Positions 14,056 to 22,117 of a DNA stretch of 64,000 nt are shown here, piece by piece. Each line of letters opens with the position of its first letter. Position 1 is the first letter of the stretch. The translations under genes were made by a program, and so were the position numbers. The stretch comes from an uncultured delta proteobacterium (GTDB lineage Bacteria > Myxococcota > Myxococcia > Myxococcales > Myxococcaceae): positions 1 through 64,000 of the forward strand of contig CAVYSY010000036.1 in NCBI GenBank assembly GCA_963771175.1. Reading direction: 5' to 3'. The notes below the pieces were generated by a model that searched no databases, was not told where the DNA came from, and saw nothing but the letters and a program-made list of their open reading frames with translations.

Positions 14056-15293
<1,238 letters not shown>

Positions 15294-15349
15294 GACCTGC
15301 TCCTTCGCAATCCGTCCGCCCGGTCCGTGCCGGGCACGCGAGGGGGTAA

Positions 15350-15365
15350 AGCAGCCCGCGTGCCA
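15350..15365 (-). promoter_or_regulatory. sigma54 (-24/-12) promoter of rtcBA
   Basis: TGGCACGCGGGCTGCT, GG-N10-GC spacing, between rtcR and rtcB. Confidence 0.8.
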
Positions 15366-15434
15366 GCCCCGTCCCGAGGGGAGGCACGATTCCCCTGCCC
15401 GTTTCCTTATCTCCCCGGCTAAATTCGTATCCGC

Positions 15435-17085
<1,651 letters not shown>

Positions 17086-17220
17086 GCGGAGTCCCATCGC
17101 TCGGTTGCCTCCAGGCCTGTCCGGCAACCGGGCGCCAGCCCGCCAGCTCCGTTCTGGCGTCTGGCGAGCTCCAGGGTCCTTCCCCACCTTGGATGGAAGG
17201 CATACGTCCTGGAGGCGAAC

Positions 17221-17503
17221 ATGCCCGTCCTGTTCGCGATCTTCTCGCTCATCATCCCGCGCGCTGGTGGTGCTGGTGCTGTGGTTCCTCACCGACTGGT
17301 TCCGGGGCATGTTCGACACGCTGCTCTGGCCCATCCTCGGCTTCATCTTCCTGCCCACCACGCTGCTCTGGTACTCGGCCGTGCAGCACTGGTTCGACGG
17401 GCAATGGACGCTCTGGCCCATCGTGGGGCTGGTCGTCTCCTTGATGATCGACGTGTGGTCGAGAGGCGGACGCGGCGGCAAATCCGAGCCCCCCGTCATG
17501 TGA
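17221..17503 (+). CDS. small membrane protein (frameshift near 17262)
   Basis: GGAGG RBS; MPVLFAIFSLIIPR continues as LVVLVLWFLTDW...WPILGFIFLPTTLLWY. Confidence 0.65.
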
Positions 17504-17585: not shown

Positions 17586-18455
17586 GTGAGGTACTTCGTC
17601 ATGGTCGCCGTGGGGGCCACCCTCTGGGGGTGCTGGTCCCTCTTCCTGCGACCCGCCGGGCTCTCCGGCCCCCAGAGCGCCCTGCTCGTCATGGGCGTCA
17701 TGTCCCTGCCCGCCCCCTTCGTCCTGCGCCGCGAGTCCCTCCGCGACCGCCGTGCCACGCTCGCGCTCGCCCTCGTCGGGCTCTCCGACGCCGCCAACGC
17801 CGCCCTCTACTTCGCCGCCGTCCAGCGCGGGCCCCTCGCCGTCGCCGTCCTCACCCACTACCTCGCCCCCCTCCTCATCGCCCTCGCCGCCCCCTGGGTG
17901 CTGCGCGAGCCCCGCTCCGCCCGCGCCCTCATCGGGGCCCCCCTCACCCTCGCCGGCCTCGCGCTCCTCCTGGGCACTCCCCAGGGTGGACTCACCGACT
18001 CCTGGACCGCCCTCCTCGGCGGCGCCAGCGCCCTCTTCTACATGGCCAACGTCCTGGCCTCGAAGGTGGCCGCCCGCGCCTACTCGCCCCTCGCCGTCAC
18101 CGCCCTCCACGCCCCCATCTCGGCCCTCGCGCTGCTGCTCGTCTTCGGACGCAGCGCCCTGCCTCCCGCGCTCGACGCCCACCTCCTCCTCGCCATCGGT
18201 GGTGGCGCCCTGTGCGGCCTCTTCGCCAACCTGCTGTTCATTGTCGGACTCCGCCGCATCCCCACCGCCGCCGCCGGGGCCCTCACCTACCTGGAGCCCC
18301 TCACCGCCGCCCTCCTCGGGCAGCTCGTCTTCGGCGAGGCCCTCGGGTCGCTGGGACTCCTGGGCGGCCTCGTCGTCCTCATCTCCGGCGCCTGGGTCGC
18401 CAGCGAGTCCCGTGCTCCCGCGGAGGCGCGCCCCGCCCCCACGGGTACGGGGTGA
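17586..18455 (+). CDS. DMT/EamA family transporter
   Basis: About 10 hydrophobic helices; YLAPLL and YLEPLTA repeats. Confidence 0.85.
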   Translation: MRYFVMVAVGATLWGCWSLFLRPAGLSGPQSALLVMGVMSLPAPFVLRRESLRDRRATLALALVGLSDAANAALYFAAVQRGPLAVAVLTHYLAPLLIALAAPWVLREPRSARALIGAPLTLAGLALLLGTPQGGLTDSWTALLGGASALFYMANVLASKVAARAYSPLAVTALHAPISALALLLVFGRSALPPALDAHLLLAIGGGALCGLFANLLFIVGLRRIPTAAAGALTYLEPLTAALLGQLVFGEALGSLGLLGGLVVLISGAWVASESRAPAEARPAPTGTG

Positions 18456-18467
18456 CCCATCGGGGGC

Positions 18468-18806
18468 TCAGCCCAGTTGCTTCTCCAGGGCGGCCCTCAC
18501 GTCCGCGGTGAAGCCCGCCAGGAGCTGACTCCCCGTGTCGATGAGCGGCCTGCGGACGTGGTTGGGGTTCGCGGCGAGGTGCCGCACCAGCTCCTCCTCC
18601 CCCAGCGTCCCCAGCTCCGCCTTCCTCTTGGGGGCGATGAGCTCCCGCACGCCTCCCAACCTCGCCGCCAGGGCCCGGACCTCGGCCTCGCTCAGCGGTT
18701 TCTTCACCAGCTCCCGTACTTCCGCCTGCACCGACTTGTGCGCGAGAAACTCCCGCGCTGACTTACAACCCGTTCAACCGTTCTTGATATAGAGCGTGAT
18801 GGACAT
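18468..18806 (-). CDS. ArsC/Spx-like thioredoxin-fold protein with in-frame UGA (UxxC), putative selenoprotein
   Basis: GGGAGG RBS; MSITLYIKNG-UGA-TGCKSAREFL...KPLSEAEV...NPNHVRRPLI...GF. Confidence 0.8.
18736..18768 (-). promoter_or_regulatory. candidate bacterial SECIS hairpin
   Basis: UUGU-AAGUCA-GCGCGGGA-[GUU]-UCUCGCGC-ACAA; loop begins with G, 23 nt after UGA. Confidence 0.6.
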
Positions 18807-18915
18807 GCCTCCCGTGTAGCAGTCCGTCCGCCCTCCCTCAATTACCCGCTTGCGCTCCGGGCCCGGGGAGTGCTCCTCTTTTCATCCCGACCGCGCCCAC
18901 GGGAGCAGTACCCGA

Positions 18916-19461
18916 ATGGAACCCTCCGTCGACAGCCGTGAGTACCGCGTCGTCTTCTTCTGCCCGACCTCGAGCGCGCAGCTGGAGCACATCGAGGCCC
19001 CCGTACGCCGCGTCCTCACGCGCATCTCCGCCCCTCCCGCCGAGCTCGCTCCGCTCGAGGCCGCCGGGACGCTCGGGGAGGCCGGCTGGCGCGTGTACCT
19101 GGTGCGCTCCATGACCGAGCGCTCCGCCGCGCACGCCCTGGCCGCCCACGTCACCGAGGCCGCCTCGGCCATCGCCAGCGAGCTGGACACCGAGGTGCTC
19201 GGCCTCTACGTGGACGTGGCCAGCGACTCGGCCCGCATCTGCCGCTGCATCCCGGACGAGAACCCCGAGATCTTCGCCGGCCGCCGCCGCAACGTGCTCG
19301 ACCGCACCGCCGAGTGGCTGGACATCAACCCGGCCAGCCTGTCGGCCCTCTTCCAGCTCGCCCTGGAGCCGGATGAGGAGGCGGACGCGGAAGATCGCTT
19401 CGTCGAGGCCAAGTTGCGCGAGGCGCGCGAGCTGATGCAGCGCTATCGTCAGGGCAAATGA
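18916..19461 (+). CDS. hypothetical protein
   Basis: Open frame with host-like codon bias; overlaps the next start (ATGA). Confidence 0.65.
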   Translation: MEPSVDSREYRVVFFCPTSSAQLEHIEAPVRRVLTRISAPPAELAPLEAAGTLGEAGWRVYLVRSMTERSAAHALAAHVTEAASAIASELDTEVLGLYVDVASDSARICRCIPDENPEIFAGRRRNVLDRTAEWLDINPASLSALFQLALEPDEEADAEDRFVEAKLREARELMQRYRQGK

Positions 19462-20072
19462 GGTCCCGTACCCCGGAGGATCTCTCCGGCCGCTGTCCCG
19501 ACTGCTATCTGCCCTCGGCACTGTGCCTGTGCGCCGAGGTTGCCCGGGTGGACACCCGCACCGACTTCCTCGTCGTCCGCCACAACAAGGAAGCCAACAA
19601 GTCCACCAACACGGCGCGCCTGGCGGCGCTCGCCCTGCACCGCTGCCACATCCTCACCTATGGCGCCCCGGGCCAGCCCTTCGATGTGTCGGTGCTCTCG
19701 GCGCCGGGCACCTGGCTGCTCTTCCCGGATGCCCAGCCCCCACCCCCCGGGACGCCTCCACCCGAGCGGCTGGTGGTGCTGGACGGCAACTGGACGCAGG
19801 CCCGGCGCATGTACCAGCGCCTCCCCGAGCTGCGTCGGCTGCCGGGACTCGCCCTGCCGCCCCCCGCCCCGGACTCCCGGCGCCTGCGCCGCTCGCCCCA
19901 CCCCTACGGCATGTCCACCGTGGAGGCCATCGCCGGGGCCATCGCCGTGCTCGAGGGCCCGGAGCTGGCCCGTCCGCTCTATGAGCTCCACGAGCTGATG
20001 ATCGATCGCGTCCTGGCCAGCCGGGGCCGGAGCAGCGACGACGAGCAGGGGTTGGTGCATGACCTGGACTGA
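19458..20072 (+). CDS. DTW-domain tRNA-uridine aminocarboxypropyltransferase-like protein
   Basis: CPDC...CLC, HNKE...STNTARL, LLFP, VVLDGNW, MSTVEAIA. Confidence 0.85.
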   Translation: MRSRTPEDLSGRCPDCYLPSALCLCAEVARVDTRTDFLVVRHNKEANKSTNTARLAALALHRCHILTYGAPGQPFDVSVLSAPGTWLLFPDAQPPPPGTPPPERLVVLDGNWTQARRMYQRLPELRRLPGLALPPPAPDSRRLRRSPHPYGMSTVEAIAGAIAVLEGPELARPLYELHELMIDRVLASRGRSSDDEQGLVHDLD

Positions 20073-20137: not shown

Positions 20138-22117
20138 ATGACGATGGGGCGTCCTTCCACACCAGACCGCGAGTTCTCGCGCCTGCTCGGCTCGGGCATC
20201 ACCTACCTGAAGCAGCGCCAGGCGCCTGACGCCCTCTGGCACAGTCCATCCCTCGGTGGACCGATACACACCAGCATGGGGCTCCTCTCGACGAACCTCC
20301 TCGGTGAGGAGGACCCCCTCCGCTTCACGCGGGAGCGGACGCTCGTCGAGAACCTGCTGGCGGACCAGGCCGTGGATGGCGGCTTCATCGCCTACCCCGG
20401 CGGCCCCTCCACCCGGCCCAGCACCCGCATCGTCCTGCTCTCGCTCCAGGTCTTCGGCCAGCACCACCGGGAGGCCCTGGAGCGCGCTCCGGAGCTGCGT
20501 GTGCGCATGGAGCAGGCGGAGCGCCGCGCGCGGGGATTCCTCACCTCTGGCAAGCGCACGGAAGAGCCAGGGGGCGGGTTCTTCAAGGCCGTCGCGGACA
20601 TCCTGTACGACTCCATCAACCCGGAGCACTCGCGGACGCTCCCCGCGCTCCCTGGGATACCCGGGGTGACTCGCCTGCTGCTCGAGCTGAAGCTGCTGGA
20701 GCGCCCCCGGCACCGCATCTCGATGTTCTTCGTGCAGGTCCTGCCGGCCTTCACCGTCCTGTTCCACAAGGCCGCCGAGCGCTCGTCGTGGGTTCGCGCC
20801 ACCCATGCCTTCACGCGGAAGCTCGGTCGTGGCTCCCAGGCATTGAACGCACTGGAGGACCGCATCCTCGCGCTCCAGGAGCCCGGCGGAGCCTGGATGT
20901 GGACCGTCATGGGGACCACGCTCAACCTGCTCGCGCTCCGGGCCCTGGGCCATGGGCCCTCCCATCCGGCGATCCGCCGGGGCATCGCGTACATCGAGCG
21001 GCTGCGGATGCCCACCACCGAGGGACGCCTCGTCCAGGCGTGGTGCCACTCCGAGATCTGGGACACCGTCTGGGCCTGCGACACCCTGCTCGTCGCGGGC
21101 GAGCAGCCCGAGCTGCTCCGCAGCGCCGAGGTGGTCGAGCGCGTCCTGGAGCAGCAGCGCAGCGGCTACTGGGCATACGGCAACGCCTCCAGCCAGGGGG
21201 AGAACGACTCCACCTCGCTCGTCGTCGCCAGCCTCGCGAAGCTCGCGCGGGGGCTCGAGGGAAGGACGCGGAACGCCCTCGTCGTGTCGGTGCGGCAGGC
21301 GGTGACCGAGTTCCTGCGCGCCCAGCAGCGGGATGGGGGCTGGGGCTACTCGCCCGCTCCCCACCTGGCACCCTACTCGTACGGCTCCCGGGTACCCTCC
21401 GGCTCCGAGGCCAACCTGATCGACGCCTCAACGGCGGACGTCACCGCGCGCGTCCTGCTCGCGCTCCAGGCCGTGGAGGCCACGGACCTGCTGGAGGCGG
21501 GGATGGCCGCCCAGGCCCGCGACGCCATGAAGCGGGGGATGGAGTTCCTGAGGCACTCGCAGACCCGGACGGGAAGCTGGTGGGGACGCTGGCGCGCCGG
21601 CTACCTGTCGGCGTTGCCGTTCATCACCCCGGCCCTCCGGGTGGGAGGCGAGCCCGAGGGCTCGGCCTGCTTCACCGCCGTGCGCGACTTCCTATTCACC
21701 CACCAGCACCCGGATGGGGGCTGGGGCGATGGAACCGAGGCCGACCGTGATGCCTCGAAGGCCGGCTGCGGCGCGAGCACGCCCCTGCAGACCGCGGGCG
21801 CCCTCATCGCGCTGGTCGCGACGACTCCGGGGAAGGACCTCGGAGACAGCGTGCCCCTCCAGCGGGGAGTCGACTACCTCGCCCGAACCCAGCGCGCCGG
21901 CACCTGGAGCAACGGCCGGGCCCTCTACACCGCTGCGTTCCAGGCCGACTACTACGACTCCCCCATGGGGACGCACACGATGGTCACCCGGGCGCTCACC
22001 TATATCTCGCTCGCGAGAGACCTCGGCGTCGACGCGGCCACCCGGCGGATGGTGTGCGGGAAGGGTCTCGGAGAGCCGCTGGCGCGCGGGCGCGAGCTGA
22101 CAGGGAACCCGGCTTGA
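20138..22117 (+). CDS. squalene-hopene-cyclase-fold (class II terpene cyclase) protein
   Basis: QW repeats (QQRDGGWG, QTRTGSWWGRW, QHPDGGWG), IWDT, TADVTARVL, STPLQTA. Confidence 0.85.
   Translation: MTMGRPSTPDREFSRLLGSGITYLKQRQAPDALWHSPSLGGPIHTSMGLLSTNLLGEEDPLRFTRERTLVENLLADQAVDGGFIAYPGGPSTRPSTRIVLLSLQVFGQHHREALERAPELRVRMEQAERRARGFLTSGKRTEEPGGGFFKAVADILYDSINPEHSRTLPALPGIPGVTRLLLELKLLERPRHRISMFFVQVLPAFTVLFHKAAERSSWVRATHAFTRKLGRGSQALNALEDRILALQEPGGAWMWTVMGTTLNLLALRALGHGPSHPAIRRGIAYIERLRMPTTEGRLVQAWCHSEIWDTVWACDTLLVAGEQPELLRSAEVVERVLEQQRSGYWAYGNASSQGENDSTSLVVASLAKLARGLEGRTRNALVVSVRQAVTEFLRAQQRDGGWGYSPAPHLAPYSYGSRVPSGSEANLIDASTADVTARVLLALQAVEATDLLEAGMAAQARDAMKRGMEFLRHSQTRTGSWWGRWRAGYLSALPFITPALRVGGEPEGSACFTAVRDFLFTHQHPDGGWGDGTEADRDASKAGCGASTPLQTAGALIALVATTPGKDLGDSVPLQRGVDYLARTQRAGTWSNGRALYTAAFQADYYDSPMGTHTMVTRALTYISLARDLGVDAATRRMVCGKGLGEPLARGRELTGNPA

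Follow-up and report, generated by a model that had tools for sequence, protein, structure and literature searches.

The locus and its in-frame TGA codon

The stretch of DNA analysed here (the window) comprises positions 1 to 64,000, that is 64,000 nucleotides (nt), of contig CAVYSY010000036.1 in assembly GCA_963771175.1, from an uncultured delta proteobacterium of the Myxococcaceae. On its minus strand lies a gene of 112 codons that is interrupted at codon 11 by an in-frame TGA, and that is predicted to encode a small selenoprotein of the ArsC/Spx type. In a preliminary reading made from the sequence only (the sequence-only reading), a hidden selenoprotein had been proposed at this place, with a UxxC motif (U, selenocysteine or Sec) and a hairpin resembling a selenocysteine insertion sequence (SECIS). 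The features of the gene are as follows.

18468..18806, minus strand: predicted full selenoprotein gene, 112 codons from ATG (18806) to GGC (18471), followed by a terminal TGA (18470-18468)
18808..18813, minus strand: GGGAGG, Shine-Dalgarno-like as read from the sequence; ends 1 nt before the ATG, function doubtful
18804..18806, minus strand: start codon ATG; the N-terminus (MSITLY, MATTLY or MIRYY) is conserved from here in orthologues
18774..18776, minus strand: in-frame TGA, codon 11, very probably read as selenocysteine; aligned with the first cysteine of the CxxC motif of Spx and of Cys homologues
18765..18767, minus strand: codon of Cys14, the putative resolving cysteine of UxxC; invariant Cys column, TGT in 18/26 and TGC in 8/26 sequences
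18740..18758, minus strand: SECIS-like hairpin GCGCGGGA-GUU-UCUCGCGC, 8 bp, loop GUU at 18750-18748, inside the coding sequence; minimum free energy structure
18468..18731, minus strand: truncated open reading frame (ORF) of 87 amino acids (aa) from GTG 18731, taken from the plain ORF list; gene callers report it instead of the full gene

The minus strand reads GGGAGGC, ATG TCC ATC ACG CTC TAT ATC AAG AAC GGT TGA ACG GGT TGT AAG TCA and continues GCG CGG GAG TTT CTC GCG CAC AAG. With TGA translated as U, the product has 112 residues (MSITLYIKNGUTGCKSAREFLAHK...) and carries the motif U11-T-G-C14. The ATG at 18806, the TGA at 18776-18774 and the 112-aa frame down to 18468 were thus found as the sequence-only reading had placed them, and the ORF track did hold only the truncated 87-aa GTG frame. 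The assignment of the TGA to the first Cys of the family's CxxC motif also agreed with the alignment, in which it falls on Spx Cys10 and on the cysteine of the Cys homologues. From the claimed pair of ribosome-binding site and ATG, the ATG was retained; the ribosome-binding site is doubtful, the 1-nt spacing of GGGAGG being unusually close. A promoter and terminator scan detected no sigma-70-like promoter, and the only terminator-like sites were two on the other strand at 18852-18878.

Conservation of the TGA codon

A six-frame search was made in 61 genomes, namely the genome itself (G000) and 60 relatives. Strong matches (E at most 3e-23) were found in G000 and in 25 of the 60 relatives (every one of the 17 other members of the genus, Archangium, plus eight genomes from other genera), and each match contained an internal TGA. 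In all 26 orthologues (one per genome, 45-93% identity to the window protein) this TGA occupied the same aligned column, in the context G/A-U-T-G-C. When 401 genomes of the phylum were searched with a profile, the scores were bimodal: all 34 matches of 142-199 bits had an internal TGA, and 34 of the 35 matches scoring 59 bits or less had no stop. One genome among the former 34 (G236) is unpublished, and leaving it out gives 33/33 among 400 genomes. Ten further loci from the phylum search were read, with TGA and hairpin present in 10/10, and in named public genomes the codon was TGA at 43 of 44 loci, which include Archangium gephyra, A. violaceum Cb vi76, A. minus, A. lansingense, Vitiosangium sp. 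and many metagenome-assembled genomes (MAGs) of Myxococcota. The ortholog sets overlap and the genomes are related, and these counts are not to be taken as independent events. One genome of the genus, G002, carries the gene twice (contigs C327 and C1055, 93% and 92% identity), with the internal TGA in each copy; as this genome is scored at 7% contamination, the second could stem from a different strain.

Contigs from two independent public sequencing runs (X1 and X2, Logan) span positions 18300-19000. They differ from the window at 9 and 20 positions, none of these at 18774-18776, and contain no indels. The sequence-only reading would have been contradicted by TGC or TGT at this codon in reads and close relatives; neither the orthologues of relatives nor the X1 and X2 contigs show these codons. 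Since the TGA is kept across such divergence, a sequencing error or a recent lesion was ruled out. The frame of the ten codons 5' of the TGA was likewise preserved, and K8 and G10 do not vary. Moreover, TGA serves as the terminal stop in 8/26 orthologues, indicating that there is no general reassignment of the codon.

The SECIS-like hairpin

The hairpin consists of 19 nt (GCGCGGGAGUUUCUCGCGC), begins 15 nt past the TGA and encodes A17-R-E-F-L-A22; the G of its loop lies 23 nt after the A of the TGA. The 8-bp stem with a G-initiated GUU loop 23 nt downstream, as described in the sequence-only reading, was recovered by RNA folding. A lower stem, UUGU (18768-18765) with ACAA (18739-18736), had been described as well. 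It is present in this sequence and is not conserved, as the ACAA half requires CAC at codon 23, which was found in 8/26 orthologues; it was therefore rejected as part of the element. An Rfam scan of 18300-19000 reported no SECIS family, only a chance hit to sR45 (E = 0.49).

The hairpin is conserved at the level of the RNA. Codons 17-22 were identical in 26/26 orthologues except for a single TTT>TTC, and the fractions of synonymous pair differences at these codons were 0, 0, 0, 0.08, 0 and 0, against 0-0.72 in 22 other invariant columns with more than one codon (Mann-Whitney p = 0.0017, a generous value since the sequences are related). Phe20 was encoded by the GC-poor TTT in 25/26 orthologues, while the other invariant phenylalanine, Phe99, was encoded by TTC in 26/26. 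Among the wider set of loci, the few variants of the stem retained its pairing: GCG>GTG (L080) and CTC>CTT (L128) each turn a G-C pair into G-U, and CGG>CGA (L126, L128, L130) turns a G-U pair into A-U. A further change, TTT>TTC (L050, L081, L131, L132), opens the closing A-U pair only. Orthologues down to 45% protein identity still share the 19-nt hairpin almost unchanged, and the pattern occurs once in the 9.8-Mb genome. The case would illustrate with unusual clarity how a bacterial SECIS element fixes, in the helix after the active site, the amino acids as well as their codons.

A more distant locus was observed in a Dehalococcoidia MAG (L132, SHYA01000001.1), where a longer ArsC/Spx-like homologue of 34% identity reads YSR-U-ATCKKAREFLA and has the same hairpin in its TTC variant. 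As this locus has TGA at the equivalent codon and shares the hairpin, the element should be older or more mobile than the myxobacterial clade, and the data suggest a module of SECIS and helix 1 common to lineages well beyond Myxococcota. The 'KAREFLA' hairpin, identical in Myxococcota, may be a portable module of this kind, possibly spread horizontally.

Selenocysteine machinery and quality of the assembly

The sequence-only reading had called for a search for selA, selB, selC and selD, and all four were found in the genome. The tRNA-Sec scored 71.4 bits (gathering score 47) and has the anticodon UCA. The selD gene (C26:42756-43685, minus strand; 380.8 bits) itself contains one in-frame TGA (...HCAG-U-AAK...) and is by this reading a selenoprotein gene too. 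Matches to selA at C39:363957-365112 fell into six pieces over three frames, and those to selB at C31:280302-282214 were also in pieces. When the selA region (C39:363800-365300) was compared with the intact gene of G004, the two were 87% identical, with about a dozen one-base gaps, nearly all of them extra bases in G000. The rpoA gene (C22:150777-151657) was split into two frames, and a gene for an RtcR-like sigma-54 regulator in the window (15277-17444) was likewise split over frames. Because of the roughly dozen one-base gaps against an intact orthologue, and because rpoA is also split, the breaks in selA and selB look like assembly indels. In the relatives that carry the ortholog, selA was over cut-off in 23/25, the two exceptions being genomes of 73% and 89% completeness, and selB was intact in 5/5 complete genomes of the genus.

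Completeness of the assembly is put at 81.66%, and given its many single-base insertions, gene calls in this genome need caution. The sequence-only reading had argued that a chance substitution at codon 11 was less likely where the other errors were indels; indels are indeed frequent in this assembly, and the argument bears on the codon only indirectly.

Other candidate selenoprotein genes in the genome

A crude scan of the genome sought in-frame TGA codons with, 8-30 nt behind them, a GUU-loop hairpin of 7 bp or more. This gave 20 hits, of which three were credible: the ArsC-like gene, selD and a Redoxin-like ORF. The translations of the other 17 look non-coding or of low complexity, and these hits were discarded. 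In selD, the hairpin GGCGCAG-GUU-CUGCGCC begins 25 nt past the TGA, and another hairpin follows the TGA directly. The Redoxin/AhpC-TSA-like ORF (C9:61048-61629, minus strand, equivalent to L082:149-730, minus strand; 26.7 and 25.9 bits) lies at a contig end and reads ...LWVPR-U-HTCAREFPE..., with the hairpin GCUCGGGA-GUU-UCCCGAGC beginning 9 nt past the TGA. This ORF and the ArsC-like gene have in common the core CGGGAGUUUC and the encoded 'AREF'. From its sequence, the Redoxin-like ORF is a candidate for a second unannotated selenoprotein.

Protein family and fold

The window protein passed the cut-offs of two Pfam families, Glutaredoxin (27.5 bits, cut-off 22.9) and ArsC (PF03960; 27.3 bits, cut-off 24). 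No NCBIfam family reached its cut-off for this protein: scores were 43.3 bits for TIGR01617 (Spx/MgsR; cut-off 75.05), 40.4 bits for NF002459 (Spx; cut-off 123), 32.8 bits for NF041106 ('ArsC family (seleno)protein'; cut-off 85) and 27.9 bits for TIGR00014 (arsC; cut-off 106.05). An AlphaFold2 model built with 25 orthologues had a mean predicted local confidence (pLDDT) of 94.9 and a predicted template modelling score (pTM) of 0.85, with residues 1-10 at 92. Foldseek aligned this model with Spx, YffB (1rw1), other ArsC-family proteins and E. coli ArsC at template modelling (TM) scores of 0.70-0.81 and a probability of 1.00. By sequence, the closest solved structures were Spx proteins (E 1e-14 to 4e-11), with U aligned to Spx Cys10. 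The modelled product thus has the ArsC/Spx/YffB thioredoxin-like fold. Orthologues in the clade are 108-115 aa long.

Cysteine counterparts and truncated database records

No Cys form was found within the orthologous group, either in the phylum profile search or in a search of 1.84 billion representative proteins. In the latter library, none of the 18 best hits starts before profile position 13, just past the TGA, and the first hits that span position 11 scored 71 and 69 bits and read C-T-A-C or C-T-G-C. Distant full-length homologues (P0066, P0068, P0072, P0073, P0075 and P0081) have CxxC at the Sec position and are thus the Cys-containing equivalents that a Sec site should have. Seven weaker matches from the search of relatives (E 1e-7 to 1e-5) were a YffB-like paralogue with C-G-T-C or C-S-T-C. 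As for the alternation of TGA and Cys codons that the sequence-only reading had proposed as a check, Cys was seen only in distant homologues and paralogues.

In a collection of 5.8 billion proteins, 46/46 hits were 63-104 aa long and covered at most 88% of the query. The six that were read, from Archangium records, begin after the TGA and go under names like 'arsenate reductase', 'ArsC/Spx/MgsR family protein' or 'hypothetical protein'. Three other proteins of 126-144 aa (P0055, P0058, P0065) match the family over the first 65-76 residues only and then diverge, P0058 running on into a sigma-70 region-4-like tail; these may be frameshifted contigs or fusions.

Proposed function

Judged from the sequence, the locus very probably holds an intact, functional gene for a cytoplasmic selenoprotein of 112 residues with the ArsC/Spx/YffB thioredoxin-like fold, most likely a small UxxC thiol/selenol oxidoreductase. 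The central claim of the sequence-only reading, a hidden ArsC/Spx-like UxxC selenoprotein, is supported by the conservation of TGA and hairpin, the Cys homologues, the Sec machinery, the predicted fold, the agreement of independent assemblies and the GUU-loop hairpins of other genes in the genome.

In the proposed mechanism, the 19-nt hairpin 15 nt past UGA-11 would recruit SelB with Sec-tRNA(Sec) as the ribosome translates the mRNA, and UGA-11 would therefore be read as selenocysteine and not as a stop. Sec11 would then lie where helix 1 starts, with Cys14 three residues further on, and the two would form a UxxC redox centre switching between the selenol/thiol and the selenenylsulfide state. 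SelB binding, selenium incorporation and redox chemistry are what we infer from the conserved features, and the protein would most likely act as a small thiol/selenol oxidoreductase, a reductase of some disulfide or oxyanion substrate.

Several observations weigh against this interpretation. The folding energy of the region is unremarkable: the 71 nt from 18785 to 18715 folded at -23.3 kcal/mol (z = -1.95), with 6/200 shuffles as stable, and the 45 nt past codon 11 averaged -14.8 kcal/mol in 26 Sec forms, close to the -11.1 to -13.9 of four Cys paralogues. The stem is nearly invariant and shows one-sided changes only, with no double compensatory covariation, and the distance from UGA to loop varies among the three candidate SECIS elements of the genome (17, 23 and 33 nt). 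The sole locus without the TGA among the 44 named ones, L131 (a Myxococcales MAG, DATFTN010000168.1), retains the hairpin and residues 17-111 (the C-terminal 95), and its upstream frame lacks the beta-1 strand and UxxC; this could be what is left of a truncated gene or an artefact of the assembly. For selA and selB some residual chance of true decay in this strain has to be allowed. RNA data consisted of a single 227-nt contig over 18711-18881 in metatranscriptome run X15 (depth 3.6, possibly DNA carry-over), and the cover in run X16 was confined to the region upstream of the gene; these data are too thin for claiming transcription, the X15 contig being the only RNA evidence. No conserved operon partner that would hint at a substrate was seen in the neighbourhoods here or at the distant loci. 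Folding energy as proof of a SECIS element was set aside as weak, and conservation was taken to decide instead.

With Sec encoded, the function of the product can be read in more than one way; an oxidoreductase is favoured, with a regulator like Spx as a much less probable alternative and an arsenate reductase ranking below that.

That the protein is a redox-sensing regulator like Spx appears unlikely. Spx proteins are its best sequence matches among solved structures and stand at the top of the Foldseek list, and the Spx motifs given in PMC8501982 have counterparts here (U11xxC14, G52 in 24/25, and R86-P87-L/I88). The DNA-contact residues R60, K62, R91 and R92 of Spx align to K60, K62, R85 and R86. 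However, RP[IL] and CxxC are common to the whole ArsC superfamily and are not specific to Spx, the Spx models TIGR01617 and NF002459 fell short of their cut-offs, and the last ~20 residues of Spx are absent (112 aa against 131-132). Of the six polar contacts to the RNA polymerase alpha subunit's C-terminal domain (alpha-CTD) listed in PMC8501982, none is identical: R47, T53, D54, L76, Q77 and Y80 correspond to A47, V53, R54, E70, E71 and V74. In this organism's alpha subunit, the residues A, Q and Q occupy the places of Y263, K267 and R268 of the B. subtilis protein, if an ungapped offset of 240 is assumed. Moreover, the accessible literature describes Spx as a regulator of Gram-positive bacteria. 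A selenium-based counterpart of Spx in Myxococcota, with a selenenylsulfide switch and an RNA polymerase interface unlike that of Firmicutes, is on present evidence improbable; if true, it would be the first selenoprotein transcription regulator.

It is very unlikely that the protein is a glutaredoxin-coupled arsenate reductase, ArsC, with Sec in place of the catalytic Cys12. Such a function would fit the Pfam ArsC score (27.3 against a cut-off of 24), the match to structures of E. coli R773 ArsC (TM 0.74-0.76) and the name 'arsenate reductase' that public records give to truncated forms. Sec-containing ArsC forms (UxxS) are also tabulated in PMC2398784 and PMC9312934. The motif of the window protein is, however, UxxC as in Spx and YffB and not the CxxS/UxxS that PMC2398784, in its accessible part, gives for ArsC type 1. 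The TIGR00014 score is far from its cut-off (27.9 bits against 106), and ArsC proper matched less well than Spx and YffB in both sequence and fold. No ars genes were seen in the flanks here, nor any matches to arsenic-resistance families at 8 more distant loci. R773 ArsC has the oxyanion triad Arg60/Arg94/Arg107, in which Arg94 would probably be the equivalent of R86 in the RRP motif here.

The view that the TGA is a real stop codon, an error of sequencing or the lesion of a pseudogene, leaving a product of ~87 aa or none, draws on the truncated ORF given by gene callers and public records, the error-prone assembly and the unremarkable hairpin energy, and is extremely improbable. All orthologues read, from several genera, retain the TGA, as do independent assemblies. 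The ten conserved upstream codons make up strand beta-1 in a fold predicted with confidence, and a product cut short would have neither this strand nor the redox motif. The assembly errors are single-base insertions and not substitutions, and the terminal use of TGA in orthologues speaks against general reassignment.

Gene neighbourhood

The genes next to the predicted oxidoreductase gene are the following.

17586..18455, plus strand: EamA-family transporter, convergent neighbour (Pfam EamA, 80.7 bits); not part of the system
18850-19461, plus strand: conserved hypothetical protein, divergent neighbour; ORF of 203 aa, no Pfam family
19458-20072, plus strand: DTW-domain protein, divergent neighbour (Pfam DTW, 118 bits)

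In tblastn comparisons of synteny, the EamA transporter adjoined the gene only within the genus, and synteny with the hypothetical and DTW genes did not reach beyond Archangium and a single sister genus. The neighbours differ in L045-L051; across seven genera farther away they were unrelated, among them NADH dehydrogenase subunits, methylmalonyl-CoA mutase and a phosphoesterase. The neighbourhood was dropped as a clue to function, being conserved only in Archangium and the one sister genus. The 203-aa ORF at 18850-19461 is 87-96% identical across the genus and 62% identical in the sister genus, and is always followed by the DTW-domain gene. Farther along, at 20138-22117 on the plus strand of the window, lies an ORF for a squalene-hopene-cyclase-like protein of 659 aa (SQHop_cyclase_C 137.6 bits, N-terminal domain 39.2 bits).

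Comparison with known systems

Selenoproteins like ArsC have been described before. In the Sargasso Sea and Global Ocean Sampling (GOS) surveys, 'Arsenate reductase (ArsC) 1' has the motif UxxS (PMC2398784), and the GOS family 'Arsenate reductase 2' (cd03032, UxxC) comprises 42 sequences with 238 Cys homologues (Zhang & Gladyshev 2008, PMC2398784). An 'arsenate reductase-like protein, COG1393, UxxC' stands in the list of a 2022 review (PMC9312934). The claim of the sequence-only reading was thus correct as to the gene and overstated its novelty, ArsC-like UxxC selenoproteins being already present in PMC2398784, PMC9312934 and NF041106.

The protein found here resembles GOS 'Arsenate reductase 2' in its thioredoxin-like ArsC/Spx type, in Sec as the first residue of UxxC, in the existence of Cys homologues and in the combination of TGA with a predicted bacterial SECIS element; the likeness is one of published description. 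It differs in that the GOS family is known from marine metagenome reads, whereas the present clade belongs to soil Myxococcota, has shorter proteins (108-115 aa) and has no Cys orthologue that could be found. An ArsC-like and a 'distant ArsC homolog' selenoprotein were reported in Desulfotalea psychrophila and Desulfuromonas acetoxidans (Zhang et al. 2006, PMC1794560). These organisms were at the time also classed as Deltaproteobacteria and are other organisms than the one studied here; the comparison is again by description only, and the accessible part of that paper makes no mention of Myxococcales with ArsC-like selenoproteins. NF041106 (ArsC_rel_Se_1) belongs to the same superfamily and is a model that allows Sec, yet 0/12 relatives tested reach its cut-off, and neither does the window protein with its 32.8 bits against 85; that this model does not cover the clade may explain the truncated database records.

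Compared with Spx from B. subtilis and streptococci (PDB 3l78, 1z3e, 3gfk, 6ghb and 7f75), the position of CxxC, G52 and RP[IL] align, while Sec replaces Cys10, the C-terminal extension is missing and the alpha-CTD contacts are unconserved on either partner. YffB (PA3664, PDB 1rw1) is of similar size (114 aa) and has the same fold (TM 0.80). The CGTC paralogues of Myxococcota (L052-L055) have their CxxC at the same place with Cys instead of Sec, are 30-35% identical and lack a conserved hairpin.

A literature search, with subscription journals outside its scope, gave no description of this myxobacterial clade. The supplement of a 2016 survey records the Sec trait for Myxococcales; in it, known selenoproteins number one each in Cystobacter fuscus and Stigmatella aurantiaca and three each in Myxococcus fulvus and Corallococcus coralloides, a table that gives the numbers without saying which proteins they are (PMC5029168). 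The predicted oxidoreductase would add a selenoprotein to large-genome soil myxobacteria, where that survey counted only 1-3 (PMC5029168), and would correct the annotation of public records, which hold fragments of 63-104 aa without the active site. The kind of protein has been known since 2005-2008, and the clade is no new class; it is an unmodelled and systematically truncated myxobacterial member of that kind.

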